From IMG/VR virus record IMGVR_UViG_3300044984_002785: DNA of 26,143 nucleotides, one strand, 5' to 3'. How positions within the stretch are numbered: position 1 is the stretch's first letter; every line of letters begins with the position of its first letter. Source of the stretch: a virus (Duplodnaviria > Heunggongvirae > Uroviricota > Caudoviricetes > Demerecviridae). The notes under the pieces are model-generated. The model had not been told where the DNA came from, ran no database searches, and was given only the letters and a program-made list of their open reading frames with translations. Made by a program: the position numbers and the translations under genes. Below are positions 1-24,783 of this stretch, in pieces.

Positions 1-411
1 TGTAAAGCTCAAAGTACTTTCATTAGGTGCAGTTAGTTCTTGTATTAAACCATCAAAAATTAAAACAAAATCAGTTTTAGGCCAACTAGGGTCACCTAAA
101 TAGATTTTTATTGGTCGTTTATTCCACACATATGTTAAATAGTCGTCATGTACTCCGGCAGTGTTAACAAACTCAAGGGTACCAAAACTCAAGGAGGCCT
201 GACCATTAACACTTAAACTTTCTGAGAAACTAAGTCCTCCAGTTATGCCAGCATTATAGCTTTGACTGTTTCCAAAATAAGCCATATTAGACAGAAAAAA
301 GCTGGAAACATTAGTATTAATAATGTTTCCAACTTCCGTAATATCTGCCAATATACATTTAATGTGACCTGGCGTATTAAGCCAGGTCACCATTTCTGTT
401 ACTGTTTTCAT
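1..411 (-). CDS. Tail protein immediately downstream of the tape measure gene (distal tail/hub-type), 3'-truncated by the window edge
   Basis: Manually translated open frame from ATG at 411 (ATGA overlap with the TMP stop): MKTVTEMVTWLNTPGHIKCILADIT...GGLSFSESLSVNG...WNKRPIKIYLGDPSWP..., with no stop before position 1. It is missing from the ORF track because it lacks a stop. The function is inferred from synteny. Confidence 0.75.
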   Translation of the reverse strand, partial: MKTVTEMVTWLNTPGHIKCILADITEVGNIINTNVSSFFLSNMAYFGNSQSYNAGITGGLSFSESLSVNGQASLSFGTLEFVNTAGVHDDYLTYVWNKRPIKIYLGDPSWPKTDFVLIFDGLIQELTAPNESTLSFT

Positions 412-6400: not shown

Positions 6401-7616
6401 GTGCATCTAATAAACCCATTGCGGCACTACCAGCTTTTTGCTGGCTTTTTGTTTGAATCTCAGCAACTTTTTTGGCAGCAGCGTCTGTTTTTTCGATTTG
6501 CAAGTCCGCTTCTTGCTCAATCATTTGCTCGATAGCTTTCATTTGCTTTGCACGAGCAACTATTGCATCACCAGCTTTTTGCTTTGCAAAAGCCGCAGCA
6601 GATACTTCTGCCTCTTGCAATCCTTGACGGAATTGCCCAATAGCTGGTATAGCTTGTTTTACTAACATAGTAGCTAAACTTGCGACTACTGCAAATAGTG
6701 CGGTAGGGCTGCTAGATAGTACGTTTAAAAAAGGTACTAATGCTTTATTTACTACTTCTAAAATATTCTGACCAAGATCTTTGACAGATGCTAGTAGTTT
6801 ATCGTAAGGATTAGTTTCTAGTTTAATATCTCCGAATTTCTTTTGTCCTTGTTCCAGTACGGCGTTAGCAAATGCTTGACGACGCTCAAAGTCAGTTAAT
6901 GCAGTTGCACTCTTACCTACACTAGTAGCATATTTAGCAACGACGTCATCAATTTTAACAAAGATACCTAATTCATCTAATAGTTCGGGCTCTAGCTTTG
7001 TGATACCGCGAGTTAGACGACTAACCGCATCCTGCATATCAATACCAAGAGCCTGCGATGCACCCTTGGCTACTTTACCAATCTTTTCAATAGCACTGGA
7101 GTCGATACCAGATGAAATAATTTTAGTAGTAGCTTGTGCTGCCTCACGTAAGCTAAGTGCTCCGTCTGTGGCCGCAACTAAATTTTTGGATAGTGTTCCG
7201 ATAGCGACGCCACTTATTGCGCCAAGCTGATCCATACCACGAACCATATTCGTGGTATCCATTGAGGTTTTTAATGCGCTAAAAGCAGCACTAACAGCAA
7301 AAAGATTGGCAGCATAAGTTGCATATAAACGAACTAATCCGCCTAATCCACGACTCTGGTCTGCAAAATCTCTGGCCGAAGCTCCGCTAGCCCCTGTTAA
7401 AGAACGGGCTTTACCGTACTCTTGACCGGTCATTTCTGGTTGCTTTTTAGCAGCAGCCATCTGAAGTGATTTACTGGCTTTTAAACTGTTATTTAACTTA
7501 TCGCTACTAGAAGCAGCTTTAGCTAATTGTTCGTGTACGCCACTTGCTTCTTTTTCAACCTTAGGTAGCGTTCCGTCACTGCTTACCTGTACGCCTATTT
7601 TTATGTTTTCAAGCAT
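408..7616 (-). CDS. Tape measure protein (2,402 aa)
   Basis: Very long Ala/Lys/Glu-rich helical ORF directly after the chaperone pair. It has a T5 pb2-like N-terminal segment (LTRGITKLEPELLDELGI), hydrophobic Gly/Ala-rich segments and a C-terminal FAVGTNYVP...IHKGERIIP motif typical of TMPs. Confidence 0.93.
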   Translation of the reverse strand: MLENIKIGVQVSSDGTLPKVEKEASGVHEQLAKAASSSDKLNNSLKASKSLQMAAAKKQPEMTGQEYGKARSLTGASGASARDFADQSRGLGGLVRLYATYAANLFAVSAAFSALKTSMDTTNMVRGMDQLGAISGVAIGTLSKNLVAATDGALSLREAAQATTKIISSGIDSSAIEKIGKVAKGASQALGIDMQDAVSRLTRGITKLEPELLDELGIFVKIDDVVAKYATSVGKSATALTDFERRQAFANAVLEQGQKKFGDIKLETNPYDKLLASVKDLGQNILEVVNKALVPFLNVLSSSPTALFAVVASLATMLVKQAIPAIGQFRQGLQEAEVSAAAFAKQKAGDAIVARAKQMKAIEQMIEQEADLQIEKTDAAAKKVAEIQTKSQQKAGSAAMGLLDAPAQERTKEMYAAAQAQAEAIDQQVKSIDKRTKAGKAQVAILLEEKDAITQAVQVSKASQAAEEALEAKKKIHREELEKDPKRFGAVGVAQANAAQAEAAANRTRIISNAGVTGSLVGVRAAYTELKAEFAAQGKTMWSAPFTAIGAGAAAVTGRLSALLGSLGPYMMALQIAVAVGTALNAVFSKNSEQAAKFNGSLDSLSKAIQTAGDNAAYFIKQDWDAALPLAVVTSRATALKELSTAITNVAKDFDLVASKRGMWDGFWNGVFAITPFAKSDKQAAAKKLSEGIEESISLVPYGPLRKEYEEKVKKILNISGGMTSQNIEFKFKTMGEKEAIAAGKAVALVTEQVANKQKAGAQAAADVDNAFKDTTIAYQELARSLSNISPLESFANKLLSISATLADSLKSPEEAFASLTKLLSEPKKMALLGPESFAALQASKAEIVDISKEIKKLEAEAEELDKKKKQLPEATIAGSAMDTAKQRIDAQIKEADDKLLKLRSTGAEIASKIYNSVNVEAFKTAGKIFAAEMNAANAQAGLTIRKAYSSLFTGQAAINEQASVAKEDLAIKRNLILITADLIKSNFLLINSNKEKLVEDKKSEAQKTLTAQTGIPGTAAEKLRAESTAYLESGYSSEIRPILAEKRVLTAKQPGQQAQAEYTAMEAGQRQALQPFLDAIRASEKQLVALGAADKSIDIDKELKTKQESVRLSIIQKNYEVQVNELALKRRDILDQLVGKTTEQTVKERISLENALEANKQKAKEMDLEGRIAASQSVMEKSDFNKQPKAFKENIQTQLAQDQTSLADIKAASEREKSLKAEADQLRVIDAIYKQRLESIDKAAQASKDDADKKQSDTAIAKTAREQELSSLVALDVITERTRISRQLDIDLLSIKNDKEQKTTELQIEQDKQLGEIAAKKAFINSFTSAEVVTEQAKIDALTKQANLVYKAIDDAKASNMTEEEFLNFRSEKGKEALDILRQQVAIDNGIVKLKTDQAAGLAYQNKEETRVNTSYATRQNIIDAAALAQDKQITKAAALAIIIDQQNQKLADQNAYLDSAKNISETLNSTFALFGESMAKAGEGLAGLINGFAQAAVEAEKYGEARSKAQQKVDNAVGDKDKFQAQKDLDKLDEDNSKRETARDIQMVSSTKKLFKEKTVAYKLLAATEKAMHVATLFMEAKSFALKMGWLTAEVGATIAADGAIVGSKVATAPAKVAADVPAILSSFASMGPVGYAIGAALVATLLSMVGGGGGKAAFVPTSEQRRETQGTAMGYNSEGAKVQVRRGVFGDTDAKSESIANSLEIIKDNSIDGLAYDNKMLNALNNLNEALNSAAKGLFGVKGLRAGSLSGAVEGTNTSGGFLGIGGLFSKSTTKSIIDSGLQLKGTFYDLAKGVRGTINTFETISTTVKNSGFLGIGGSTRTSVSTQFKDLYGIDPKSFEALSNTFNYAADLLYSTAETAGVASDAVTSALKSLSVDEMATLRGLTGEDFAKELSAVIGSVLDDASYVIFASFEKYAKFGEGMLETVIRVVDTNIKIDQALKNMGVAFDVSKDYTETISGVTTFFGITIGKWSETIGQTSKDITEALADSAGGLDKFLEQAQNFRENFLTEAEQLAPIQKAVITEMARLGFASTDTRDEFKLLVQGLDLSTKSGRDNYQALMNVQEGFIAVTAAAVKEAEQRKTLDKKLAQVSATKEALREMELEGLFESNRELQREIWLKEDQVAATKALQTSLQNTTKTIKSQITSLSDYKTAMQSGANSTLTATQQYTLAKTEVDALTSTISKSANTPEEVEARSTAISKLTSATDKWLSLSRSLYASGSQYTVDFNSVMGIIATVGTSLENQLTDAERQLTALETSNTYLEVISTSSKTTASLLETYLNLGGKPLTTPGFAVGTNYVPNDMMAQIHKGERIIPVADNFKLISRLTDTDNYTRDMCVQIRELNQKITSLERTVADGAIMNAQATDRNTEQVTQAVTDGSDKTIQVSRIQNRAIIK

Positions 7617-7677
7617 GCTTTCTCCTGGCTTACTTTTTTATCTGTTAAATCTAAAACATAGACTTAAATGTTCACTC

Positions 7678-7706
7678 ATTATAGCACTAATCCAAAAAAT
7701 TGTCAA
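7678..7706 (-). promoter_or_regulatory. Sigma70-type promoter for the tape measure/tail tip genes
   Basis: Minus strand reads TTGACA (7706-7701), 17 bp, TATAAT (7683-7678), ~60 nt upstream of the TMP start. Confidence 0.8.
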
Positions 7707-7726
7707 ACCAAAAAATTTTACGCAAT

Positions 7727-7760
7727 AAAAAAGCCCTCGACCGTTAGGAGGAGGGCTTTT
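7727..7760 (-). terminator. Intrinsic terminator at the end of the tail chaperone genes
   Basis: AAAAGCCCTC/GAGGGCTTTT inverted repeat with an A-run on the left (U-tract on the minus strand), overlapping the stop at 7744. Confidence 0.7.
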
Positions 7761-8142
7761 CAGATTGCTTTTTTGCTTTTTCGTTTATTAAACGTTTTCT
7801 AACGTTATCTATTCCACGAATATACATCAAGTAAACTAAGTAGTCTTCTTTATCAATTTTATAAAGATCAAACAGTGTAAAAACAATTGTAGTGTTTTTA
7901 CCTTGGTAAGTTCCACTCATACCATCCCAGATATCACTTAGTAAATAATATATATTAAATACTTCCTGAATTTCAAAAGGAAAATCAGAAAGTTCTATTG
8001 GTATTTCTGATTCTATGGGTTCGCTTCCAAAGGCATCACATAATTCCAAGTACTGATCTTTGGTCATGCCAGCATCAGTGTTTTGGAAATAATTGTCAAT
8101 TTTTGTTAAAATTAACTCTGTTTGCTCGTCGAAAAGTTTCCC
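7744..8142 (-). CDS. Tail assembly chaperone, downstream (gpT-like) frame, reached by -1 frameshift
   Basis: The ORF-track ORF 7744..8067 stays open upstream to the slippery heptamer at 8142-8136 (GGG AAA CTT TTC GAC GAG CAA ... GGC ATG ACC). The fusion product would be ~261 aa. Confidence 0.8.
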   Translation of the reverse strand, partial: GKLFDEQTELILTKIDNYFQNTDAGMTKDQYLELCDAFGSEPIESEIPIELSDFPFEIQEVFNIYYLLSDIWDGMSGTYQGKNTTIVFTLFDLYKIDKEDYLVYLMYIRGIDNVRKRLINEKAKKQSEKPSS

Positions 8143-8528
8143 AGGTCTGTGACCTGTTCGCTTACAAAACTATCAAAATTAGTACTGGCTTTCATTAAAG
8201 CTAGTGCATCTTCTTTTGTGAAGTCCAATTCTGATTCTGGATCAGCATCGGAAATATCAACAGGTGCAAGTTGTTCGAGATATTTTAACTTTAAGCCTGT
8301 CCAACCCTTGATAGAGCTTTCAGCATAAAGTTGTAAAAATAAATCATCATTTAATTCTTCAACTGGTTGACGGTTTTTAAAACTGGTTTTTGTAGCTTTT
8401 TTACGAATCTGTTGTAGTGTTTCGCGTGATAAAAAGCTTAAAGTAACTTCAAAGCCTGGCATACCTGGATATTCCATTGTATTTGTTTTGCTAGGTACCA
8501 GCATTGATTTAAGAGAGAGCTGTGACAT
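8112..8528 (-). CDS. Tail assembly chaperone (gpG-like, 138 aa)
   Basis: Lies between tail tube and TMP, is acidic, resembles T5-type chaperones, and ends in ...TDLGNF over a slippery site. Confidence 0.85.
   Translation of the reverse strand: MSQLSLKSMLVPSKTNTMEYPGMPGFEVTLSFLSRETLQQIRKKATKTSFKNRQPVEELNDDLFLQLYAESSIKGWTGLKLKYLEQLAPVDISDADPESELDFTKEDALALMKASTNFDSFVSEQVTDLGNFSTSKQS
8136..8142 (-). promoter_or_regulatory. Programmed -1 ribosomal frameshift site G GGA AAC
   Basis: X XXY YYZ heptamer in the correct frame (CTG GGA AAC). The -1 frame is open and in phase with ORF 7744..8067, analogous to lambda gpG/gpGT. Confidence 0.85.
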
Positions 8529-8560
8529 TAGTGTCCTTGTTATAATAATTTACTTAAGTT

Positions 8561-8592
8561 AAAAAGAGGTGCCGGTGATCTTGCCGGCACCT
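8561..8592 (-). terminator. Intrinsic terminator after the tail tube gene
   Basis: 9-bp GC-rich stem AGGTGCCGG/CCGGCACCT followed on the minus strand by CTTTTT. Confidence 0.8.
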
Positions 8593-8608
8593 GTAAAACT
8601 GCTATTGA

Positions 8609-9835
8609 TTAATAGCTAGTATCTGCTACAAAGTAACGAATCTCGATTTCGTTATTTGAACCGATATCAAATGCACCACCGGCAGAACCCTGCGCAGTGA
8701 ATCCAATTGTTGTAGAGATGATCTGTTCTGTGGCAATCGTAGGAATTTGCAACACAACTGCTGGCATTACTAGGTCAACGCGGGTTAGTGCGCTTGCTGT
8801 ACCACCGATGCTCATCTTTAGGTTATAGGCTGGGTTAACATCGCTAACACTTGCAGTAATAAGTGCATTGTATAGTGCGGTTGCACTTAATGTACCTGTA
8901 CGTAAGTATGCGTTTACAGAACCTGTTACACTACGAGTACCAGTAAAGTATGTAATTGGTTGGTTAACAACCCCTAAATTACTTGGTGTTAGGTATGTAA
9001 CATTGTTGGCAATCGTTACGCTACCACCAGTTAAGGCAATATCGTATGGGCCAGTTGTAGCTCCGTTAATGTCTTTGTATAGAGTAACAGTGCTTAGCTT
9101 GTTAGCTAGGTAAGCTGCTTTTGTATCTTTTAATACTGCTTCACCGATAAAGATGCTGTCGCTAGCTGATGTAGCAACTGTTTTCTTTAGACCGCTGTTG
9201 TCTGCTAAACTAGTTTTACCGAATTGACGAATGGCGCTGGCTTTTCCGGCCCATTGAATCATGGCGATAGTATCTAGACCGAAGTCCATAGTTGCAGAAT
9301 CCATAACACAGTTGTCAATAACAAATGTGGCGTCATCTAAACAGATAATTAAACCAAATGGTAATAGTTGATTTTTATTTGATTGTGCTAATGTGGCTAC
9401 AGCGTATGTAGTTGTACTGGCGTTTGAGGCGCTATCTGTCCAGGCTGTTGTGCCTGTAGCGTTATAACTACCGGCTAAAGCAACTTGACCAAACATAGCG
9501 TTCCACAAGTGTCTTTCTTCTGCGGTAACTTGGTGAGTACCTTCTGCACTTTGAGCGTCTCGTGGACGAATATATGTGCTAAAAGAGAAGTCAACTGGCT
9601 CTAAAGCTGTGTTGAAGTTACGTTGTCCGCGATTAGGTGTTCCACCAGCTTCGTTTAACGTAATTGTTTCTGTTGTTGTGTTCTGAGTAAAACTTAGACC
9701 ATCCAATACTTGAATTTCAAAGGTGTCTGAAGTAGTCATATCAAGGCCGGCTCCGGCTCCTGTAGAAACTACCCCAAAAGAATCAACTTTTGTAGTAAAG
9801 AATACTCTGGCGTTACGAATTAAATTAAATGCCAT
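8609..9835 (-). CDS. Major tail tube protein (408 aa)
   Basis: T5 pb6-like motifs (FEIQVLDGLSFTQ, RGQRNFNTALEPVDFSFSTYIRP, YFTGTRSVTGSVNAYLRTG) and synteny. Confidence 0.9.
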   Translation of the reverse strand: MAFNLIRNARVFFTTKVDSFGVVSTGAGAGLDMTTSDTFEIQVLDGLSFTQNTTTETITLNEAGGTPNRGQRNFNTALEPVDFSFSTYIRPRDAQSAEGTHQVTAEERHLWNAMFGQVALAGSYNATGTTAWTDSASNASTTTYAVATLAQSNKNQLLPFGLIICLDDATFVIDNCVMDSATMDFGLDTIAMIQWAGKASAIRQFGKTSLADNSGLKKTVATSASDSIFIGEAVLKDTKAAYLANKLSTVTLYKDINGATTGPYDIALTGGSVTIANNVTYLTPSNLGVVNQPITYFTGTRSVTGSVNAYLRTGTLSATALYNALITASVSDVNPAYNLKMSIGGTASALTRVDLVMPAVVLQIPTIATEQIISTTIGFTAQGSAGGAFDIGSNNEIEIRYFVADTSY

Positions 9836-9910
9836 TTCATTTCCTTTTTGTTAATGCTTTAGTACATAAACTAGACATTTATCTGTTGTTAGTACCTTCT
9901 GCATGGTTGC

Positions 9911-10363
9911 TTACGTTACCTGATAGCGGATTTGTAAGTTAATTTCACCGATTGCATAAGGGGCCAATAGCCCTTCGTCGGTTGTTATACTTTGAACCAA
10001 AATTTCTGTTGTTTCAAAAAAACTATTGTCCTGATTTGTATCAGGACTGTATTGTAGTTGACGATTTGCATCTATGCAAGTTTCTATGTCTGAGAGCAAG
10101 TTTTCCAGCTGTTGCTGCGAATCTTCACCCTTGCAGTAAACTTTCACACATACTCCCAACATTCCCCAAGCAAAATTTCCGGAATGATACTCACGTTGTT
10201 CCATTCCAGGAGATATGTAAACTGAGGGGAAATCATTAACTTCATCCCAAAATTTTAGCTTTGCATAGGCATTATTGAACAAGTTAGTAGTATATACGCC
10301 TTGTCCATTTATTGTGTTTAATTTCGCAGCTATTGCTGTTGTTATTGATGTTCTACGACTCAT
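9911..10363 (-). CDS. Tail terminator / tail-to-head joining protein (150 aa)
   Basis: T5 p142-like sequence (LKFWDEVNDFPSVYI...TTDEGLLAPYAIGEINLQIRY), located just upstream of the tail tube gene. Confidence 0.8.
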   Translation of the reverse strand: MSRRTSITTAIAAKLNTINGQGVYTTNLFNNAYAKLKFWDEVNDFPSVYISPGMEQREYHSGNFAWGMLGVCVKVYCKGEDSQQQLENLLSDIETCIDANRQLQYSPDTNQDNSFFETTEILVQSITTDEGLLAPYAIGEINLQIRYQVT

Positions 10364-11748
10364 ACTAGTACGGCCCTTAATCTGTTAGTTACTTGCTGTG
10401 CAGCAATTTCTCTGATTGATGCTGATATTAGCAATTTAGGGTCTCGGGACTTTGGTAACTCTTGGCGACCACCCTGACTAAAGGTTGCATACGGGCTTTT
10501 CATATAAGTATAAAAAGCGGTAATCATACCTTGTCTGCTTTGAGATAGAGAGTCTACTTTAGCAGATCCAGCTAATCTACCGGTACGGTAATTAAGAATA
10601 TCTCTGCGGTTACCGTTACCCATATTAGCACTTATTACATCTTGTAACTGTTGATTAAGTAGTAGCAATAACTTTGCTAAACTCACAGTGCTTGTTAACT
10701 TTTGTTCTTTTACAGGAGCTGGTCGAGGTATTTTTTCTTTAACTGCCGTACTGGCTGGTAGTTTATTATTAGTACCAATAATTAAAGACTTACCTTTAGG
10801 ACCTTTTTGTGGTGCGTGAGGTTTTAACTTGACTTTACCAGTTTTTATTAAACTAGCTACAGCTTTACCTATATCTTGTAATATAGTATTTGAACCACTT
10901 ACGCCCAGGTACTTTTGTACTAACTTCTTATCCGCTAACAGTATGGCTAGATTCTCTTGGAAACTCTGAAAGATCTTTAGCTCTCTAGCTCCAAAGTCTT
11001 TTTGGTTAACTTCAGATCTTTGAATAGTTACAGCAACAAATACAGTACCAAATAATTTTTCCACACCTTTAAATACTTCAGGAGTACTATTTCTAAAGGA
11101 ATAATCAAAATCAGCTTGAATACTCATTATCTCGTCAAGCATATCTGTTGCAAGAGTTGTGGCTTTAGTGTATCCTCTAATTTCCAGTATATCCGCAATC
11201 CGGCCTATCTTTTCTGCTAACGGAGATACAAAATATTCCGAAGCATTACTAGGTATATGTCCTATATCTAGTAAACTCACCTCTTGCGTAACTCTCCAGT
11301 CTTCCTCGGCTTCTCCGGGATAGTCTGGTTTTCTTATCTTTTTAATACCAAAAGCAGTATCTACTAGTTTTGGATCTCTAACTACATCTCGTATGAATTT
11401 TTGTATTGCGTCATAGGACATTGCTAATAATAGCTGTGTGTCTTTCCCGCCATCTATATATACTAAATAAGGTTTTGAGCCCAGGAAGTGTTCTGGAGGT
11501 ATAAGCGATATTGAAGAATATTTTCTAGTCGCTTTAGCTGACACAACTTCAAGGAATTTCTTATGTAACTCATCAAAATTAACTAAGATATTTTCTTTAT
11601 TATTAACTAGCAAACTATTATAAGAAATATCAAGTACATGAGGTCTTTTATCTAAGTCTAGCTTGCGAGTATCAAATAATAACTGTGCTCTTATGTCTTT
11701 ATCTAAAGTACTTATTAGATCTTTAAGAGTTATACTTCCGGTAGCCAT
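10360..11748 (-). CDS. Tail completion/neck protein with a large N-terminal extension (462 aa)
   Basis: C-terminal T5 p143-like motif (LNYRTGRLAGS...FYTYMKSPYATF...RDPKLLISASIREIA) and synteny. Confidence 0.7.
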   Translation of the reverse strand: MATGSITLKDLISTLDKDIRAQLLFDTRKLDLDKRPHVLDISYNSLLVNNKENILVNFDELHKKFLEVVSAKATRKYSSISLIPPEHFLGSKPYLVYIDGGKDTQLLLAMSYDAIQKFIRDVVRDPKLVDTAFGIKKIRKPDYPGEAEEDWRVTQEVSLLDIGHIPSNASEYFVSPLAEKIGRIADILEIRGYTKATTLATDMLDEIMSIQADFDYSFRNSTPEVFKGVEKLFGTVFVAVTIQRSEVNQKDFGARELKIFQSFQENLAILLADKKLVQKYLGVSGSNTILQDIGKAVASLIKTGKVKLKPHAPQKGPKGKSLIIGTNNKLPASTAVKEKIPRPAPVKEQKLTSTVSLAKLLLLLNQQLQDVISANMGNGNRRDILNYRTGRLAGSAKVDSLSQSRQGMITAFYTYMKSPYATFSQGGRQELPKSRDPKLLISASIREIAAQQVTNRLRAVLV

Positions 11749-12317
11749 TACGTATAGTCTGCCTTATATAAGTCTAAAATACGCTTAATATGTGCTGGTA
11801 AACTAGTTGTAGAAATATATTCAATTTGCACTGTGTTTGTACCAGGTGACTTAGAACTATGAATAGCGCTATCTTGTCTGCGATAGTAAGTTATTAAATC
11901 CAAAACTGCTGCTTCTAAATCTGCAGGTACGTCGTTATAGCCTGCTGTATAAATAACTTTATAGCCTCTGATTAACTTAGGAAAGTATCCTGAGCTATCT
12001 AAGCTTAAGACGGTATCTCCATCTTGTACCCAGTCTTTGTACTGAACTAAATCAGTCCAAGTTTGGCCATAGTTAGTACTTATCTGAACATTACTAATTG
12101 CTACGATTGGTGTTTCTTTAAGAATGAACTTATTTACATCGCCGTTAAATACCTCGGTATTTGGGCTCGACCAGTAGTCGACAAATGTTCTATTACAGTA
12201 TGTTTTAATTAACTCAGAAATCTTAGGAATAATGAAATCAATTACAGCATCTTCATTAGTACTCTTAATTCCAGCATAGGTCTTATAGTCTGCTTTTGTT
12301 GTAAGATTTAATCCCAT
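11748..12317 (-). CDS. Head completion / head-tail adaptor protein (189 aa)
   Basis: gp6/gp15-like connector pattern (KTYAGIKSTNED..IPKISELIKTYCNRTF...YTAGY..VPADLEAAVLDLITYY), located after the capsid gene. Confidence 0.85.
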   Translation of the reverse strand: MGLNLTTKADYKTYAGIKSTNEDAVIDFIIPKISELIKTYCNRTFVDYWSSPNTEVFNGDVNKFILKETPIVAISNVQISTNYGQTWTDLVQYKDWVQDGDTVLSLDSSGYFPKLIRGYKVIYTAGYNDVPADLEAAVLDLITYYRRQDSAIHSSKSPGTNTVQIEYISTTSLPAHIKRILDLYKADYT

Positions 12318-12360
12318 ATTTACCTTTCTTGTCTTTTAAAAGGACTTAAAAAATCCTTTT

Positions 12361-12388
12361 AAAAGACAAGGAACCGAAGTTCCTTGTC
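12361..12388 (-). terminator. Intrinsic terminator after the capsid gene (cUUCGg hairpin)
   Basis: Minus strand reads GACAAGGAAC-TTCG-GTTCCTTGTC-TTTT. Confidence 0.8.
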
Positions 12389-12395
12389 AACTTAA

Positions 12396-14324
12396 TTAAG
12401 CTACGTAACGTAGAGCTGAAACACCAGCACCTAAATTAGTTGTAACTTGTGTCATACCAGTACGTAGGCTAGCTACCATAACACGACGTTGTGTTTCCAC
12501 TAAGTCTTGAGTGTCAATACGTAGACCACGCTGATTACCGACTAGGAAGTTACCTGGGTTTAAGCAGATAGCGCCAACTGCGTCAGCAGCTTTGTCAGCA
12601 AATTCAGCACTTACGATAACTGGAGTGTTACCGATTGCACCGATTTGACCTGTTAGTAAAGTGGCTTGTTGACCAACTTTATCAACTGTTAGGAAACTTG
12701 CGTCTTCTAATAGATCGTAGTAGTTTTCTGTGCTTACGATGTAAACTAGTTCGCTTGGATCAAGACCCCATGCACCTAGATCACGACGTAGAAGCTGTAA
12801 CTTGGCAACAGTCATCTTAGCAGCATCAGAAATATCTAGAGTAACAGCGCTTACTGCGTCGTATGCTGATAGACCTTTAACTGGGTCAGAACCTGTACCT
12901 GCACCACGTAACATAGCACGGTCAACAGCGCGAGCAACACGGCGAACCATAGCGTCACGGATAACAGGCATAATTGCTAGTAGAGCGTCTTCTTCTTCTT
13001 CGTAGGCAACGTATTCGTTTGTAGCTACTTTGTAAGCATTTAGAGTAATCTCTTTTAATGCATGAGTAGCTTCTGCACCAGCGCTAGCGGCAGTACCGAA
13101 GGCTGTATTAGCCATCCAAGTAGCAACACCTGCTTCTGGGTTTACTGGAATAGTCATTACGTTAGTGTTCATTGCAATACCACGTAGGTTAGGTGCAACA
13201 ACTAAACGACGACGTACTTCATTTTCCATAGCCATAGAAACTTCTAATTCCCATGTAGCGCTTGGAACGTGAGCACCATATTTTTGTACCATATCGCGAC
13301 CAAACTTGGAACCTTCTAGGCCCTTGCCAGTCATTTTACTTAATAGTACAGCTTTTTCTTTGTCTGCGTAAGACATTTCGCTAGACTTACCGTCTTGGAA
13401 TTGCATACGTGATTTTGTGATTGCTTCTAGTTCAGCAGCTTTCTCTTTAAGAGCGCTTTCTAGACCAGCAACAACACTTTTAGTTTCATCAGCCTGAGCA
13501 GCGAAACGCTTCTCGACTTCAGCCATAAGAGCTTCAGCACCAGTAGTAGATGGTGTTGCTAAAGCAACAGCAGCTTTGATACGGTCTTGTAGTTCGGCTT
13601 CTGCTTTGTCGGCAGTAGCTTTGTCAGCAGCAGCTTTTTCTTGTGCGGCTAATAGAGATTTTGTGGCTTGTTCAGCGGCAGCAGTAGCAGCCTCGGCCAA
13701 CATTTTTTGTAGTTCTTTTGGATCCATTTTCCATTCCTCGGTAATTTCGCTGTTTACATCGCTGGAGGCGTCTAGCCCATTAGCTGAGTTGCTTTTGCTT
13801 GCAAACTGCATTTTGAAAGATTTAAATTCTTCGGCCGTATCAAACGCCTTAGAAAGACTAAATAGTGTATTTTGATTTGCTGGTACAGACACAATTGATA
13901 TTTCGTGTAGTTCCAGTTCTTTTACAACAAACAGCTCTAAGGCTGAATTATATTCCGCATCGACGATACGGAAACCAATGCTAAAGGCGGTTAGCACACC
14001 GTCTTTTACAAGATTGAAGACGTCTTCAGCAGCAGCAGAAACTCGGGCTTTTACATACAAGCCTTTTTCGTCTACTTTATGATCCGTCATCCTACCCACA
14101 GGCTCACTGTGATTATGGTACGCCAAAATTACCGGATTTTTCAAGTAATTTTTAATACCAGCTTCCCACACACTCGCAGGAACAATATCGCCTTGTCTGT
14201 CAACGTCATTAGTTGAAGCGTAACCTTCTATAGTTACTGAATCAATTTTTTCGCCGGCAGTAGGTAGAGACTCGCTCTTTGTAAAAGAACTGTTAATAAA
14301 CAGGACTTTACTTTTATCTACCAT
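12396..14324 (-). CDS. HK97-type prohead protease fused in frame to scaffold (delta) domain and major capsid protein (642 aa)
   Basis: N-terminal protease motifs (IEGYAST...DRQGDIV, ILAYHNH..PVG, FSIGF, ELHEISIVSVPANQ..LF), then an Ala-rich coiled coil, then HK97-fold capsid motifs. Possible internal start at 13727. Confidence 0.92.
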   Translation of the reverse strand: MVDKSKVLFINSSFTKSESLPTAGEKIDSVTIEGYASTNDVDRQGDIVPASVWEAGIKNYLKNPVILAYHNHSEPVGRMTDHKVDEKGLYVKARVSAAAEDVFNLVKDGVLTAFSIGFRIVDAEYNSALELFVVKELELHEISIVSVPANQNTLFSLSKAFDTAEEFKSFKMQFASKSNSANGLDASSDVNSEITEEWKMDPKELQKMLAEAATAAAEQATKSLLAAQEKAAADKATADKAEAELQDRIKAAVALATPSTTGAEALMAEVEKRFAAQADETKSVVAGLESALKEKAAELEAITKSRMQFQDGKSSEMSYADKEKAVLLSKMTGKGLEGSKFGRDMVQKYGAHVPSATWELEVSMAMENEVRRRLVVAPNLRGIAMNTNVMTIPVNPEAGVATWMANTAFGTAASAGAEATHALKEITLNAYKVATNEYVAYEEEEDALLAIMPVIRDAMVRRVARAVDRAMLRGAGTGSDPVKGLSAYDAVSAVTLDISDAAKMTVAKLQLLRRDLGAWGLDPSELVYIVSTENYYDLLEDASFLTVDKVGQQATLLTGQIGAIGNTPVIVSAEFADKAADAVGAICLNPGNFLVGNQRGLRIDTQDLVETQRRVMVASLRTGMTQVTTNLGAGVSALRYVA

Positions 14325-14338
14325 AATACCCCTTTGTG

Positions 14339-15523
14339 TTATTCCTTAGCGGAGGCGGGTCGTCCCCCTGTACTAGGATTTGCGGCTGATCCTGCAATAT
14401 TTGCAGGAATTCGTAAATCATCGTTACCAGCTTTTGACTCATAACGTAATTCTGTACGTGCTTCATTAGCACTAATAATTCCAGCATTTACCAATGTTGA
14501 GTGGTACGCTGCAATGTCTTTTAGTTCTGGTTGTAAAGCACTTACTGAACTTGTAATAGCCTCCACGTCATAACCAAAGTAACGTTCTATAGCACTAATA
14601 AACTTACGATTAATAGGCAGAACTGTTTCTAGGTAAAATAAACGCAGATTAGGGCTAATATTGGCATTATTACCGCCTTCTAGTAAGATAGGTGGTACAC
14701 CGATAGCCCGCATAATTTTTTCGTCATGAGTCTTGATGCTTTGATCAAAATCCATGTCTTTGAAACTGGTTTGTGCTAGCTGTTGTGGCTTTAGTCCTGA
14801 ATCTAAGATAACAGGCTTTTTGCCACCGGCTTTAGAGCTATAACGCTGCAACCAATAGTTGATTGTTTTTTCTTTGGCAACTTGACTTAGAGTATTTTCG
14901 GTGGTTAGTACCAATCCGAAAATAGCACCATTATCAAAGAATTGCTCTTGGAACTGCTGCATTGAATACAGGATATTTACTGAACGTTCAGCACTCTGTA
15001 ATCTGCTAGCTCCACGATAAATTGATTCTGAACTAATATCTCTGAAGTAAAAGACTTCGGATTCTTTGAAGTCAACAGCACCGTTGTAACGGTAGCCTCG
15101 GATAAATGTTTTAGCGTCAGTTAAGATCTCTACTGAATCAGCAGGTAGATGATACATAAACGTACCATCAAAGTGTACAAACGCATTGCCTTCAAGTACG
15201 TAATCTGTAAATACTGCTGCACGAAAATCTTGTGCACTTTGATACGGATTAGGCCTGAAGTTTAAAAGAGTACTAAGCTGCTTTTGGCGCATGCCAGTTG
15301 CAACTCCATCGTGCGCTTTGTCTTTGATATCGTAGTCTAGTGAGCTGCAGGCATTAATTAGCATGTTAACTGGTCTGTTAACTGACTCTAGCTTTTTAAA
15401 TGCTTGAGTGTAACTAATTTTGGCAGTAGTACCGATTTGGGTACCTTCGCCTTCTGCAATTCGTGTCTGTGCTGGGTTAAGTTTTGTGCGAACCCAGTCT
15501 TGTGATTTTGTAATCCAACTCAT
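14339..15523 (-). CDS. Portal protein (394 aa, HK97/T5-like)
   Basis: LLNFRPNPYQSA..F, LEGNAF, QEQFFDNGA..G, IMRAIGVPPILL, GIISANEAR motifs. Confidence 0.93.
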   Translation of the reverse strand: MSWITKSQDWVRTKLNPAQTRIAEGEGTQIGTTAKISYTQAFKKLESVNRPVNMLINACSSLDYDIKDKAHDGVATGMRQKQLSTLLNFRPNPYQSAQDFRAAVFTDYVLEGNAFVHFDGTFMYHLPADSVEILTDAKTFIRGYRYNGAVDFKESEVFYFRDISSESIYRGASRLQSAERSVNILYSMQQFQEQFFDNGAIFGLVLTTENTLSQVAKEKTINYWLQRYSSKAGGKKPVILDSGLKPQQLAQTSFKDMDFDQSIKTHDEKIMRAIGVPPILLEGGNNANISPNLRLFYLETVLPINRKFISAIERYFGYDVEAITSSVSALQPELKDIAAYHSTLVNAGIISANEARTELRYESKAGNDDLRIPANIAGSAANPSTGGRPASAKE

Positions 15524-15531
15524 GTTATTCC

Positions 15532-15963
15532 CTATGTGAACTCTGAGAAAAACGAGCCAAAACTTTGTGGGGCTACACTAGTACCACCAAGCAAATATTT
15601 TTCACGCTGTATCCCGATCCAACGGGCCTGCTTAGCTTCGCTACCAGGTTTCGGAGCTTTACCGTAAACACTATGAAGCGCTACATGATGCTGGTTACAT
15701 AGGGTGTAAACTTGATCATATAACTCAACATTATGCTCTGTGATAAACTCATCTCGTACAGCTAAAATACCTTCATCGGAGGATATATCGTAGCCTTTTC
15801 GTTCAGCCCACAGTTCCAAAAGTATTGTTACCGAGTGTAGGTGATGAAGTTCTAAATCTTGGGTTTTATCACAGATAAAACATTCAGACTTCTTTTCATA
15901 GGCTGCTTTAGCCTTATCGCGTACCCATTTTACTGGAATACGGTTATTTGTATTTTTAGCCAT
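15532..15963 (-). CDS. HNH endonuclease (T5-like nicking/packaging-associated)
   Basis: CFIC...LELHH...TLCNQHHVALH zinc-HNH pattern, located between terL and portal as in T5. Confidence 0.85.
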   Translation of the reverse strand: MAKNTNNRIPVKWVRDKAKAAYEKKSECFICDKTQDLELHHLHSVTILLELWAERKGYDISSDEGILAVRDEFITEHNVELYDQVYTLCNQHHVALHSVYGKAPKPGSEAKQARWIGIQREKYLLGGTSVAPQSFGSFFSEFT

Positions 15964-16027
15964 TTAACTTAGTATAGTAAGGTTTTACCTTGACATTTTT
16001 TGCTAGCGCTAATGTTATTGTACTAGT

Positions 16028-16056
16028 ATTATACTCTTTAGGCACAAAAATGTCAA
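16028..16056 (-). promoter_or_regulatory. Sigma70-type promoter for the HNH-portal-capsid genes
   Basis: Minus strand reads TTGACA (16056-16051), 17 bp, TATAAT (16033-16028). Confidence 0.8.
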
Positions 16057-16073
16057 CATAATATTTTTGCTAC

Positions 16074-17360
16074 CTATAGAGTATAAGTATACAATGCGTA
16101 TCTAACTGCATCAGCCATGTGAGAATAATCATCGTGCATAGGGCGCTCGCGCTGCAGACCCTCACGTTGATCCCAGCGGTACTGGTCAAACATAGCTAGT
16201 ACATTTTCACAGTGTGGTGCAACTTTTAATCGACCTTGTGCTACTAGTGTTTGTACATAGGCAATTCCGGGCAGCACATCTTTTTTGGCTTTGGTAGTTG
16301 ACAGATCATATTGATAAGCCAAGTCGCCAGCAAATTGTGCAGCTGCAGAGTCAATAAATATAACTTCAACACCCCAACGCTGACAAAGTGCTTTAAACTC
16401 ATTGGCGTGTTCCGCGGTAGTCTTTTCACTTTGTAAGTATTCGTCAACCACGTAGAAACAATCCGATGCTGGTTCGTAGATGATAACCACAAATGCTGTA
16501 GCATCTCTGTAACCTGGGTCACAACCAGCTATGGCTTCACCTTTTGTATTTTCGGGTAATTCACAAACACTAGCAGCTTTGAAATCATATATTTGTCCAA
16601 CATACGTGGTAAAGCTAGCCATGTACTCTTGTTCAAACTCCGACTTTGACATCGACCGGCGGGCTTCTTGTACATCCGACTCAGCCATACGAGTATTCTC
16701 AGTATAATCTGCTTGTAGGCTAATCCATTCTGGAAAATTATCATCAAACCCACGATTCCAAAACTGACTAAACCAGTTATTTTTACCACGAGGTGTTGAA
16801 ATAAAAATGGCTTTGGCACTGGGCTTGTCTAAAGTAGGACGAAGTGCAACGTTAAACGCAGCCTCGCCACCTTCACCTAGTGCAGCTTCGTCAAAAATAA
16901 TCAAGTCATAGCTGCGACCAACAGTTGAGTCAACGGTACTAAGCGAGCCCATGCGAATGGTCGACCCATTTGATATTTCAATGATCTTGTCTTTTAAGTT
17001 ATCACGAGTAATTTCCAAATCAAAGTGCTTGATTAGTTTACGTTGTAGCTCAAATGAAATTGACGACAAATTGTAGTTAGGTGAAATAATAAGTACATTT
17101 GACCCAGGCACTAGACTGACTAGTTGCCCAACCACGTTGGCAATGTAAGTTTTACCCAGGCGACGGGCTAGTGCGGCGCAAACGAACCTGTACTTGGGGT
17201 CGTTGACGGCATTGATTAGTGCGATTTGGGGTCTGTTGATGGTATCCCAAATTCCCAGCAGTTTTAAGTAGTTGGTAATCGGCAGTTTAATAAATCTGGT
17301 TGCGGCTGGGAAATCTGTGATAACTTCCGAGTTAACATCTGGACGACTAATAGTTAGCAT
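16074..17360 (-). CDS. terL: Terminase large subunit (428 aa)
   Basis: Walker A ARRLGKT, Walker B LIIFDEAA, coupling motif ISTPRGKNNWF, RNase H-like nuclease domain (GCDPG...DSAAA...HMADAVRYA). Confidence 0.95.
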   Translation of the reverse strand: MLTISRPDVNSEVITDFPAATRFIKLPITNYLKLLGIWDTINRPQIALINAVNDPKYRFVCAALARRLGKTYIANVVGQLVSLVPGSNVLIISPNYNLSSISFELQRKLIKHFDLEITRDNLKDKIIEISNGSTIRMGSLSTVDSTVGRSYDLIIFDEAALGEGGEAAFNVALRPTLDKPSAKAIFISTPRGKNNWFSQFWNRGFDDNFPEWISLQADYTENTRMAESDVQEARRSMSKSEFEQEYMASFTTYVGQIYDFKAASVCELPENTKGEAIAGCDPGYRDATAFVVIIYEPASDCFYVVDEYLQSEKTTAEHANEFKALCQRWGVEVIFIDSAAAQFAGDLAYQYDLSTTKAKKDVLPGIAYVQTLVAQGRLKVAPHCENVLAMFDQYRWDQREGLQRERPMHDDYSHMADAVRYALYTYTL

Positions 17361-17833
17361 TAAATACCTTCACCAGTAATCAGCTGCTGAACCAACTTGG
17401 AATACTTTGATCCATCTAGGCCTTCATTGATTTGTACATTGACTTGTTTGCTGGGCGCAGTTCCAGCCCTGATTTTTTCCAGCTGAATTTCCTTGTCCAG
17501 TAAATCCATTGACATTTTGTGTGATAAGGCAAGTAGTTCCGATATGTCTTTTTGGGACCCGGTACCAGCCTCTTCAAGTTCGGAGAACTTTTTCTTGATT
17601 AAGGCATCCATGGCCCGGCGCATCAAAAAACGGTTATTGTATCCTGAGTCCATGAACACCGAATCAATATATGTTTTAACTTCACGACGTTGTAGTATGC
17701 TGGTCACAGTTTCAACATCCAAGTCAAGTTCTTGGGCGACCTTGCGGGCATCATTAACTTGAAGGTAACAATTAGCCACTTCCAGTGCTTCTGGGGCAAT
17801 TTGTATAATTTCAGCAGGTAGGTGTTGAGTCAT
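17360..17833 (-). CDS. terS: Terminase small subunit (157 aa, T5-like)
   Basis: Coupled to terL by a TAATG overlap and resembles T5 TerS (ISPEALEVANCYL-type N-terminus, YIDSVFMDSGYNNRF, KKFSELEE). Confidence 0.85.
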   Translation of the reverse strand: MTQHLPAEIIQIAPEALEVANCYLQVNDARKVAQELDLDVETVTSILQRREVKTYIDSVFMDSGYNNRFLMRRAMDALIKKKFSELEEAGTGSQKDISELLALSHKMSMDLLDKEIQLEKIRAGTAPSKQVNVQINEGLDGSKYSKLVQQLITGEGI

Positions 17834-18418: not shown

Positions 18419-18742
18419 ATGACTGCAAAAACCGTGAACTATACCCCTGAGCAAACCCTGCAAATGGTTGCTGATTACCAAGCCGGTACAACTGTTGAGA
18501 CCATTGCCGAGGCATTGGGTAAGACTGTGCGTTCTGTCGTTGCTAAACTTTCGCGCGAGAAGGTTTACATTGCCAAGACATATGCCACCAAGACCGGCGA
18601 GGCTGTTATCAAAAAGGATACAGTAGCCGATTACATTGGCGAGGCTTTGGGCTTGGGTGAGGCTGATACAGAATCACTTACCAAAGCCAATAAGGTTGCA
18701 CTAAAAGCAATCGCTGATTTCATCAAGGCTGAAAAGACCTGA
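18419..18742 (+). CDS. T5 A2-like small DNA-binding (HTH) protein, paralog 1
   Basis: NYTPEQT...VETIAEALGKTVRSVVAKLSREKVY, then KK...ESLTKANK. Good RBS (TAGGA). Shared pattern with three other ORFs in the window. Confidence 0.75.
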   Translation: MTAKTVNYTPEQTLQMVADYQAGTTVETIAEALGKTVRSVVAKLSREKVYIAKTYATKTGEAVIKKDTVADYIGEALGLGEADTESLTKANKVALKAIADFIKAEKT

Positions 18743-18774: not shown

Positions 18775-18793
18775 AATGCGAATCATTCGCATT
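18775..18793. promoter_or_regulatory. Fur-box-like 9-1-9 palindrome, copy A
   Basis: AATGCGAAT-C-ATTCGCATT, extending to a 13-1-13 palindrome over 18771-18797. Confidence 0.55.
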
Positions 18794-19453: not shown

Positions 19454-19930
19454 ATGGCTAAAATTACTCGATGCTCAATTTACGATATGGATGGCACTAT
19501 TGTTTGCAGTTTGCACAGATATAAAACCATTATTGACGATAATGGCGAACGTATTGATTTAGATTATTGGCGCGAAAATGAATATCGTGCAATGGATGAT
19601 TCTCTTTTGCCATTAGCCCAACAATATCGGGCAGATTTGCAAGACGAAAATTGTTTTGTGATTATTGCCACTGCGCGGGTTTTGCGTGATACTGATAATC
19701 AATTCATTAATGAAATTCTCGGTGAACCTGATTATATTATCTCCAGAGTTGACGGTGATTCTACTTCAGGCGGTAAATTAAAAATCTCGGGTTTGGCAAA
19801 GTTTTTTAATCTAAAATCATTTGCTAATGCTGAATTTACATTTTATGAAGATAATACCACATATTTAAAAGCGGTATGCGATAGATTTAATATTCGGGGC
19901 GTTTATATTCCCTCAAAACAAGGTCACTAA
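19454..19930 (+). CDS. dmp: HAD-family deoxynucleoside-5'-monophosphatase, T5 Dmp-like (158 aa)
   Basis: YDMDGTIVCSLHR, DSLLPL, IIATAR and NAEFTFYED match the T5 Dmp motif order. The true start MAKITR follows an AAAGGA RBS and a TTGCTT-18-TATAAT promoter, so the ORF-track start at 19301 is too far upstream. Confidence 0.85.
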   Translation: MAKITRCSIYDMDGTIVCSLHRYKTIIDDNGERIDLDYWRENEYRAMDDSLLPLAQQYRADLQDENCFVIIATARVLRDTDNQFINEILGEPDYIISRVDGDSTSGGKLKISGLAKFFNLKSFANAEFTFYEDNTTYLKAVCDRFNIRGVYIPSKQGH

Positions 19931-19966
19931 TATATAATCCCTTCGGGGATTATAAAGGATTATATT

Positions 19967-20119
19967 ATGTTTAAATCATTTGGAAAACTAATCGGGCATT
20001 TTATATTTAATCGGCCCGATAAAATACTAATCACATTAATATTGCCAATTCTTATGATTATGACTTTTAATTATCGGGATAATCTGCGAGAATATAAAGA
20101 TTTTATATTTGACCGATAA
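19967..20119 (+). CDS. Hypothetical 50-aa protein with one hydrophobic segment
   Basis: MFKSFGKLIGHFIFNRPDKILITLILPILMIMTFNYRDNLREYKDFIFDR, with an AAAGGA RBS following a UUCG hairpin (19933-19954). Confidence 0.6.
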   Translation: MFKSFGKLIGHFIFNRPDKILITLILPILMIMTFNYRDNLREYKDFIFDR

Positions 20120-20124
20120 AACAC

Positions 20125-20140
20125 TGTTTCACGTGAAACA
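20125..20140. promoter_or_regulatory. Perfect consensus parS site
   Basis: TGTTTCACGTGAAACA is the canonical chromosomal ParB/Spo0J-binding palindrome, here in intergenic DNA. Confidence 0.75.
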
Positions 20141-20169
20141 CAAAAACTGTTGTTTTTTAGCAACAGTTT

Positions 20170-20207
20170 GCGCCAAAATTATAACATATAATTTTAGGCG
20201 GTGTCAA
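20170..20207 (-). repeat. Leftward promoter-like repeat, copy 3
   Basis: GCGCC 20170, ATTATA 20178-83, TGTCAA 20202-07 (18-bp spacer). Palindrome AAAATTATA-ACA-TATAATTTT. Confidence 0.85.
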
Positions 20208-20285
20208 GCTTTTTTTTATAACTTATTTTTTGTGTGTGATTAAAATACAACAAGTTTTGGACATTTTTTCGGGTATAATTAGCAC

Positions 20286-20666
20286 ATGGACAAAAAAACA
20301 CTGCAAAAATTGCTAATCGCTGAGACTGCGACAATTTGGGATTCGCTTTGCGAAATGTACCCAAAATTATGCAAATTTAATCCGCCTGAAATTACTTTGT
20401 GCGGTAGGCTTTGGCGTACCGCTGGAATGTGTTTTCAGGAAACACGCACAATTAAAATTGGTTCAAAATTTTTCAATCATTCTGAATTGTATACAAAAGA
20501 AATGTTTTCGGTTATTTTGCCGCATGAAATTATACACCAAGCCGATTTTGACCTTTTTGGATTATCCGAAAAAAAATGTGGTCATGGCAAAAAATGGCAA
20601 AAAATCATGGTACAATATGGGCTTAAAGCCGATTTTTATCACACAATGGAAATTAAAAGAAAATGA
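20286..20666 (+). CDS. SprT-like zinc metalloprotease (126 aa), probably leaderless
   Basis: RLWRTAG...ILPHEIIHQ...CGHGKKWQKIM (HExxH plus downstream H-G-x-x-W). ATG lies 6 nt after TATAAT at 20274-79. Confidence 0.85.
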   Translation: MDKKTLQKLLIAETATIWDSLCEMYPKLCKFNPPEITLCGRLWRTAGMCFQETRTIKIGSKFFNHSELYTKEMFSVILPHEIIHQADFDLFGLSEKKCGHGKKWQKIMVQYGLKADFYHTMEIKRK

Positions 20667-22475: not shown

Positions 22476-22802
22476 ATGACTAGCAAAACTGTCAACTATA
22501 CTCCAGAACAAACCGCCGCTATTGTGGCCGATTATCAATCTGGCATGAGCGTGGAAACTATCGCTGAAAATTTGGGCAAAACTGTCCGTTCGGTTGTGGC
22601 TAAATTGTCGCGCGAAAAAGTCTATGTGGCTAAAACTTATGTTTCAAAAACTGGCGCTCCAGTTGTGAAAAAAGACGCTCACGCTGACGCTATCGGCGCG
22701 ATTCTCAAATTGTCGGAAAATGAAATCGAATCTCTGACAAAAGCCAATAAAACGGCATTGGAAAAAATCTTTTCCGCTTTGGCAAATTCTAAGCCAATTT
22801 AA
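22476..22802 (+). CDS. T5 A2-like small DNA-binding protein, paralog 2
   Basis: Strong similarity to 18419..18742 (KTVNYTPEQT...LGKTVRSVVAKLSREKVYVAK...ESLTKANK). AAAGGA RBS and TTGACA-16-TATAAT promoter at 22414-22441. Confidence 0.78.
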   Translation: MTSKTVNYTPEQTAAIVADYQSGMSVETIAENLGKTVRSVVAKLSREKVYVAKTYVSKTGAPVVKKDAHADAIGAILKLSENEIESLTKANKTALEKIFSALANSKPI

Positions 22803-23338: not shown

Positions 23339-23357
23339 AATGCGAATGATTCTCATT
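23339..23357. promoter_or_regulatory. Fur-box-like 9-1-9 palindrome, copy C
   Basis: AATGCGAAT-G-ATTCTCATT (one mismatch). Confidence 0.5.
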
Positions 23358-23368
23358 ACGTGAAAAAG

Positions 23369-23419
23369 TTATCCACAGGTTATCCACAGGAGCAAAAACT
23401 TGTCCACAGGTTATCCACA
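23369..23419 (+). promoter_or_regulatory. Cluster of four co-oriented DnaA boxes
   Basis: TTATCCACA at 23369, 23380 and 23411, and TTGTCCACA at 23400 (start spacings 11, 20, 11). Confidence 0.8.
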
Positions 23420-23431
23420 GCCTGGAACAGG

Positions 23432-23510
23432 CTGCGCCAGTGGAAAACCTTGGCAAGTGGAAAATCTTGGTAGGTTCCTGCGCCAGTGGAAAACCTTGTC
23501 AAGTGGAAAA
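23432..23510 (+). repeat. 33-bp direct repeat pair (46-bp period) with AGTGGAAAA sub-repeats, resembling an injection-stop signal block
   Basis: CTGCGCCAGTGGAAAACCTTG(G/T)CAAGTGGAAAA at 23432-64 and 23478-510, with a fifth AGTGGAAAA at 23540. Confidence 0.8.
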
Positions 23511-23526
23511 CTTTGGGGTTTTTGCC

Positions 23527-23562
23527 GCGCCCATTATATAGTGGAAAAGCTTAGTGTGTCAA
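23527..23562 (-). repeat. Leftward promoter-like repeat, copy 7
   Basis: GCGCC 23527, ATTATA 23533-38, TGTCAA 23557-62 (18-bp spacer). No internal palindrome. Confidence 0.75.
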
Positions 23563-23661: not shown

Positions 23662-23796
23662 ATGACTGACACCGAATTTTACAGGCAAATCCAGGAAGAC
23701 TGGTACCATGAATTTGCGGGAGCAGAACTATCGCAAATTTTCGTATGTACCGATGCACACGACGAAATTTTTGAATTTGACGATGTGCCCTTCTAG
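23662..23796 (+). CDS. 44-aa acidic peptide ending in an SSB C-terminal-tail-like motif (EFDDVPF)
   Basis: MTDTEFYRQIQEDWYHEFAGAELSQIFVCTDAHDEIFEFDDVPF. Upstream TTGATG-17-TATAAT promoter (23606-23634) and AGGA RBS. Confidence 0.7.
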   Translation: MTDTEFYRQIQEDWYHEFAGAELSQIFVCTDAHDEIFEFDDVPF

Positions 23797-24708: not shown

Positions 24709-24783
24709 ACTGCGTTCGACTTCAGGTGAGGTCATCACCCTTTCAAGGTGACTAGATGGGATCGATACCCATACGCAGTACCA
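24709..24783 (+). tRNA. tRNA-Glu (anticodon UUC)
   Basis: Acceptor ACTGCGT/ACGCAGT plus A-CCA, D-arm GAC/GTC, anticodon arm TCACC-CTTTCAA-GGTGA, T-arm ATGGG-ATCGATA-CCCAT. Confidence 0.92.

Follow-up and report, generated by a model that had tools for sequence, protein, structure and literature searches.

The DNA analyzed here (26,143 nucleotides, hereafter the window) belongs to an uncultured freshwater T5-like siphophage, 26 kb of whose genome is visible. Positions 1-17833 carry T5-type late genes on the minus strand, from the tape measure through the terminase, including a major capsid protein that is fused with a prohead protease (12396-14324). The terminase small subunit gene (terS) matches 618 phage records, and those sampled are T5-like Demerecviridae with <60% identity; the metagenomes that hold matching DNA are from lakes and fresh water. 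To the right of terS lies a module of ~5.5-5.8 kb that contains a dmp homolog and A2-like, SprT-like, exonuclease-like and PQ-loop genes, followed by a non-coding block (Table 1). The module's exonuclease-like protein had no match in any cultured relative. The window also contains a lone tRNA-Glu gene (24709-24783), and a complete relative has its main tRNA cluster elsewhere. Searches for a host through the terminase returned MAG matches scattered over unrelated taxa, which look like mis-binned phage contigs, and searches with Dps and endolysin returned mixed hosts or no taxonomy.

Table 1. Features at and around the parS site of the window.
Feature	Position	Strand	Evidence or remark
Terminase small subunit (terS), T5-type	17360-17833	-	phrog_3802; left boundary of the module
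A2-like DNA-binding protein, paralog 1	18419-18742	+	phrog_1725, phrog_323
dmp homolog (T5 pre-early dNMP phosphatase)	19454-19930	+	phmmer with T5 Dmp, E 3e-13; PF26880
50-aa ORF	19967-20119	+	stop codon 5 bp upstream of parS
parS 16-mer, TGTTTCACGTGAAACA	20125-20140	.	exact; perfect palindrome; intergenic
Hairpin / operator-like palindrome, 9-bp stem	20144-20169	-	-8.5 kcal/mol, z -4.1; terminator-like on the minus strand
Consensus sigma70 promoter, leftward	20178-20207	-	12/12, 18-bp spacer; is intergenic repeat copy 3
SprT-like protein gene	20286-20666	+	PF10263, E 3e-10; first gene right of the cassette
A2-like DNA-binding protein, paralog 2	22476-22802	+	PHROGs match and Atlas neighbor clusters
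Injection-stop-like block	23339-23562	.	Fur-box-like palindrome, four DnaA boxes, short direct repeats, leftward promoter; right boundary of the module

The earlier note had described a perfect intergenic parS between a stop codon and a hairpin that precedes copy 3 of an intergenic repeat, and a scan of the 26-kb window bore out both parts of this description. The match, 2.3 kb right of terS, is 16/16, where base composition predicts ~1e-5 exact copies by chance per window and 2e-6 per module, and the gaps to the stop codon and the hairpin are 5 bp and 3 bp. No other position in the window matches the 16-mer with ≤2 mismatches, and the next best, at 8418, has 3. The hairpin adjoins repeat copy 3 and occupies the variable slot of the cassette; the end of parS is 37 bp from the -10 box of the leftward promoter and lies beyond that box. 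Homologs of the 50-aa ORF are found without a parS after them at five related loci (L003, L011, L014, L035 and L037). Since positions 19827-20240 are identical, with zero differences, in a second, independent lake sample (run X2), this stretch is not an assembly artefact, and additional contigs of the same strain and of near strains also have parS. No Rfam family covers the site. No claim on expression is made here, because the RNA-labelled run may contain DNA.

This part of the window has an array of consensus sigma70 promoters that point leftward, have 18-bp spacers and face no gene (minus strand, 18805, 19310, 20178, 22120, 22266, 23240 and 23533). The modules of the 79 related lineages together contain 288 perfect copies whose spacers are 17-18 bp long, and a variable palindrome follows every one of them; this promoter array is more universal than parS in the lake family to which the window phage belongs; none was found in the first 12 kb of T5. 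Beside the leftward promoters are direct and inverted copies of an operator-like motif, approximately TGAATAC-N4-GTATTCA (L003, L005, L037, L061 and many other cassettes), to which the A2-like proteins or a host factor might bind.

Comparison with T5 provides a framework for the function of this module. The dmp homolog marks the module as putatively pre-early-equivalent, and for paralog 2 of the A2-like proteins, Atlas neighbor clusters at 0.98 have PF26822 (Phage_T5_A2) on 12-22% of members. The window has four A2-like paralogs (18419, 22476, 23843 and 25684) and no A1, which is also absent from the complete relative G007; T5 A1 gave no tblastn match with E≤1 in the window, the loci of the family or the complete G007. 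Second-step transfer of T5 DNA requires A1 together with A2. At the right end of the module, four DnaA boxes (23369-23419) are nearly unique to the lineage: such boxes are missing from this place in 37 of the 38 other complete modules examined. Like parS, they are a lineage-specific host-protein site. Next to them (23432-23516) are GCCAGTGG and GTGGAAAA-type repeats, which are found in the injection-stop-like block of all complete modules examined and are similar to the GTGCAAATCC repeats of the T5 injection-stop (iss) region. A short acidic ORF at 23662-23796, with homologs in many relatives, ends in DDVPF and so resembles the tail of bacterial SSB. Palindromes of 19 bp that we take to be Fur-box-like are found at 18775, 22090 and 23339, and given these sites it is of note that G007 encodes a Dps / ferritin-like protein (L291 4506-4943, PF00210) with hundreds of homologs. 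The T5 injection-stop region (L299 9552-9710) contains four Fur-box-like boxes, which are unmentioned in the preprint on T5 iss.

The first-step-transfer DNA of T5, with its iss (bioRxiv 10.1101/866236), resembles the window in the order of terS, a dmp/A2 module and a repeat-rich non-coding block, and also in having boxes for a host protein (DnaA) in first-entering DNA. In contrast to the window, the first 12 kb of T5 contain no parS even with 3 mismatches allowed, and the T5 host is without ParABS, while the lake family differs from T5 by the absence of A1, the several A2-like paralogs and the arrays of leftward promoters. From T5 synteny it is reasonable, but no more than that, to infer that the parS module would be the first-injected DNA, as the family has no A1 and contig depths, on which the check for a terminal repeat relied, had no clear doubling. 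The proposal of the earlier note that parS lies in the first-injected region thus stands as far as a pre-early-equivalent module by T5 synteny, while A1 is absent and a terminal repeat and two-step entry would be putative in this family.

The lifestyle of the phage and the source of a ParB protein were also considered. Of the window ORFs that were compared with PHROGs and Pfam, none proved to be a homolog of parA or parB. Among relatives, no ParB domain was found in seven near-complete genomes, which themselves are without parS, or in four partial parS carriers of the lake family; no ParA was found in two complete and three partial records, and no tyrosine integrase in five complete relatives. 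For the lake family the ParB search is an indirect test, as the complete genomes lack parS and the parS carriers are partial; it is a direct test for the cultured Vibrio phages phi 3 and JSF10, which carry the site (see below) and whose complete genomes also have no ParB. The complete relative G007 has a typical virulent T5-like gene set, with T5-like replication genes and 23 tRNAs. The description of this DNA as that of a virulent-type phage without visible parAB is thus supported by the lack of ParB, ParA and integrase in the complete relatives searched, and the window phage itself is seen in part only. Because no partition gene is in view, the ParB of the host is most likely borrowed. The phage-plasmids P1 and N15 encode cognate ParA and ParB proteins that use a site sequence of their own. 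Like them, the window phage has a centromere-like site on its genome; unlike them, it has no cognate ParA/ParB and no own-type site was found, and the arrangement of a phage-plasmid partition system, cognate parA and parB beside the centromere, was seen neither in the window ORFs scanned nor in the relatives.

To place the site in a phylogenetic context, two protein-anchored scans yielded 160 loci, of which 79 lineages cover the module, and a lineage was called a carrier if it has a site with ≤1 mismatch. There are 18 such sites in 10 of the 79 lineages, all of them intergenic and all within the module (413 kb searched), and none in 554 kb of flanking DNA from the same 79 lineages; a whole-contig search of five carriers also found no parS outside the module. 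This confinement has a lineage-level p of ~2e-4. Across carriers the sites are 1.7-4.7 kb from terS, occupy several slots after different genes (dmp, SprT, exonuclease or PQ-loop, depending on the lineage) and reach five copies per genome, though copies inside one genome may arise by conversion between repeated cassettes and hence are not independent. On each of two independent trees, built from late genes and from the module, at least six gains or losses of parS are needed, and close pairs differ in carriage (for example L041 and L047); the nearest record to the window, a 13-kb fragment, has no parS. The core is constant where the flanks of strains diverge, and pattern scans for further carriers brought the total to 34 distinct flanking contexts around a fixed core. 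A more distant phage (L335 7943-10484; L337 120) has the same leftward-promoter cassette, with four perfect parS among repeated small genes. A scan of viral contigs for the 16-mer returned, among the matches listed, other phages and likely host DNA, which were left out of the prevalence. Because ~87% of related lineages are without the site, it is accessory. The enrichment in relatives that the earlier note had put forward as a check is thus found as confinement to the pre-early-equivalent module with apparent selection, and not as a general feature of the family. Taken together, these patterns suggest that the parS core is an accessory element under selection.

The same site is found in cultured phages. 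Sixteen cultured T5-like phages (nine of Vibrio, five of enterobacterial hosts and two of Aeromonas) were scanned, and parS was present only in the V. cholerae phages phi 3 and JSF10; there were none in the five phages of enterobacterial hosts, the seven other Vibrio phages or the two Aeromonas phages. Enterobacterial hosts are without ParABS (PMC7022226). The terminal repeat of phi 3 (KP280063; L312 821 and 2934) has two intergenic parS, flanked by pre-early genes; both copies of the repeat carry them, and the rest of the genome has none. At both homologous places JSF10 (KY883654; L311, record positions 88000 and 90148) has a center-variant parS, in which a central C of the phi 3 site is a T. 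These two phages (Demerecviridae, Jesfedecavirus) resemble the window phage in having an intergenic parS in the pre-early or pre-early-equivalent region and no ParB in view, but their layout is that of canonical T5, including A1 and only one A2, their host is known and cultivable, and their DNA has no long similarity to the window module. Searches of the literature brought up no description of parS for any T5-like phage, phi 3 and JSF10 included.

Several lines of evidence bear on whether this 16-mer is a ParB site. The consensus of canonical chromosomal parS is a 16-bp palindrome, and comparison with it upheld the assignment of the window site to this form and not to the Pseudomonas form (PMC5450999). 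In vitro, V. cholerae ParB1 binds the identical 16-mer, which is V. cholerae parS1. ParB tolerates changes at the ends and at position 12 of parS, and the phage variants are of these types. The CA-center variant, for its part, is present in 20 of 301 Pseudomonadota genomes and in 0 for the control, and half of ten such chromosomal loci inspected are within the mnmE-gidA-gidB-parAB region. Thus the phage site and parS of chromosomal ParABS systems share the identical palindrome and the same natural variant spectrum (PMC5450999; PMC7022226), whereas the phage site differs in being on a phage, without a linked parAB operon and away from a bacterial origin. Restriction avoidance was considered as a source of the CA-center variant and rejected, as ACGT and CACGTG are undepleted in those genomes and the variant is natural on chromosomes. 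The notion that parS is a by-product of the family's own inverted repeats was also rejected: the 170 TGTTTCA half-sites in modules form inverted pairs solely with a 2-bp CG or CA center, and the parS motif ranks first among 840 composition-matched palindromes.

These comparisons make it very probable that binding of host ParB is what is selected. It is, by our estimate, very unlikely that the palindrome has nothing to do with ParB and is neutral or hitchhiking, forms an RNA hairpin in a short leftward transcript, or serves as an operator for the A2-like proteins. The cassettes are rich in palindromes, a common motif of the family has a TGTTT(C/G/T)CA half, the known variants retain a possible 6-bp stem, and the four A2-like DNA-binding paralogs and the patchy distribution of the site could be read in this way. 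Nevertheless, the RNA hairpin of parS is weak (-3.9 kcal/mol) with no compensatory change in 34 contexts, the other inverted pairs of the family use different halves with mostly 7-9-bp spacers, and A2-like genes are family-wide while parS is in 13% of lineages. Further, phi 3 and JSF10, which are only distantly related, and the origin regions of bacteria have the identical sequence and its variants. A ParB site also narrows the range of hosts to ParABS-positive bacteria with canonical rather than Pseudomonas-type parS, which supports the view in the earlier note that the host is not enterobacterial (PMC7022226).

We propose that selection maintains the 16-mer as an accessory site at which the chromosomal ParB of the host loads. 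ParB loads at parS in a CTP-dependent manner, slides over kilobases and couples to ParA, HubP-type polar anchors, SMC and DnaA, and a single parS is enough to position a replicon (PMC7022226). By analogy with this established biochemistry, once the leading few kilobases enter the cell, ParB-CTP clamps of the host would load at parS and slide over the ~5.5-kb module, which would then act as a mini-centromere. In the least certain step of the proposal, the patch of ParB might link the phage DNA to the ParA or polar-anchor system of the host. The first-entered DNA could thereby be held and positioned, and it could be carried along if the host grows slowly and infection stalls, as for phi29 with Spo0J. 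This reading is favored because ParB is known to load, slide and couple and because one parS positions a replicon. We consider it an even call whether such a borrowed mini-centromere serves to position or tether the DNA that enters first, and perhaps to bring it through an infection that stalls, and the assignment of the benefit to positioning or tethering is tentative, at slightly under even. Any benefit is conditional, because parS is absent in ~87% of lineages and in seven of nine cultured Vibrio T5-like phages. T5 A1 destroys the host nucleoid within minutes, so ParA-based positioning would be undercut in phi 3, which has A1, and the lake family has none.

Other roles for bound ParB have to be weighed against this proposal, and the narrow range of distances between the site and the leftward promoter suggests a regulatory one. 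Of the 18 sites, 16 lie past the -10 box of a leftward consensus promoter, at a distance of 32-67 bp, and precede the next gene by 146-420 bp (the other two are cut by a contig end), and the neighboring slot holds Fur-box-like or other palindromes. ParB at, or spreading from, parS could block the leftward promoter or damp pre-early promoters and so tie early expression to host ParB and CTP; ParB at an intergenic parS represses nearby genes in P. aeruginosa (PMC7022226), and phages read other host regulators such as CtrA and Spo0A (PMC9437464). On this reading parS would be one among several boxes for host factors that can replace one another in the cassette. But parS overlaps no promoter, the intergenic space may just be where a site fits and, because the adjoining genes differ among lineages, a position-independent loading site fits better than a gene-specific operator, so that a regulatory role appears unlikely.

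The earlier note also offered pulling of the DNA by SMC and decoying of ParB; both are candidate readings, and each seems distinctly improbable to us. As a decoy, replicated phage genomes would titrate ParB off the host origin and disturb segregation or replication initiation. Placement in a terminal repeat, shown for phi 3, doubles the dose, some lineages have 3-5 copies, ParB interacts with DnaA in V. cholerae and surplus parS copies give incompatibility; yet a decoy should work anywhere and no site is found outside the module, many carriers have a single site, and phage DNA is scant at the pre-early stage. The strict restriction of parS to DNA that is predicted to enter first, at 1.7-4.7 kb from terS, would suit a role in entry or protection, in which sliding ParB clamps ratchet or shield the incoming strand or SMC compacts or reels it. 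ParB spreads over kilobase scales and loads SMC-ScpAB, and entry may work differently in the lake family because A1 is absent. Against such a role, most relatives do without parS, SMC motors stall at low force, and the host of phi 3, which shares the layout, is V. cholerae, a bacterium that depends on MukBEF, and MukBEF is not known to have a specific loader.

The principle that a virulent phage borrows host ParB is known from phi29. As work by Meijer et al. (2005) is summarized in later papers, this virulent Bacillus phage has five parS that are used by the host ParB-family protein Spo0J in spore entrapment (PMC2731898; PMC9437464). Like phi29, the window phage is of a virulent type and has a host-type parS. 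By the same accounts, phi29 differs in being a small podophage with a sporulating Gram-positive host, five sites and a role in spore entrapment, while the window phage is from a family of ~100-kb T5-like siphophages with a presumably non-sporulating Gram-negative host, in which parS is confined to the pre-early-equivalent module and to a minority of lineages. What is new is the repeated gain or loss of parS in interchangeable cassette slots, its strict confinement to the pre-early module and the existence of a cultured model. With phi 3, its natural variant JSF10 and the well-studied ParB1 of their host, a direct experimental test of this metagenomic finding is at hand.

A broader and more speculative proposal, which we think rather unlikely, is that in T5-like phages of ParABS hosts the DNA that enters first has acquired host centromeres time and again, and that ParB clamps, together with DnaA and other host proteins, could there grip, anchor or ratchet the leading segment. 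If this were true, phage DNA entry would involve the partition machine of the host, and the pause in T5 injection, for which there is no explanation, could become easier to approach. Among virulent phages, only those of the phi29 type have been shown to use host ParB, and there sporulation is the explanation. The recurrent, position-restricted parS in T5-like phages of apparently non-sporulating hosts points to another benefit.
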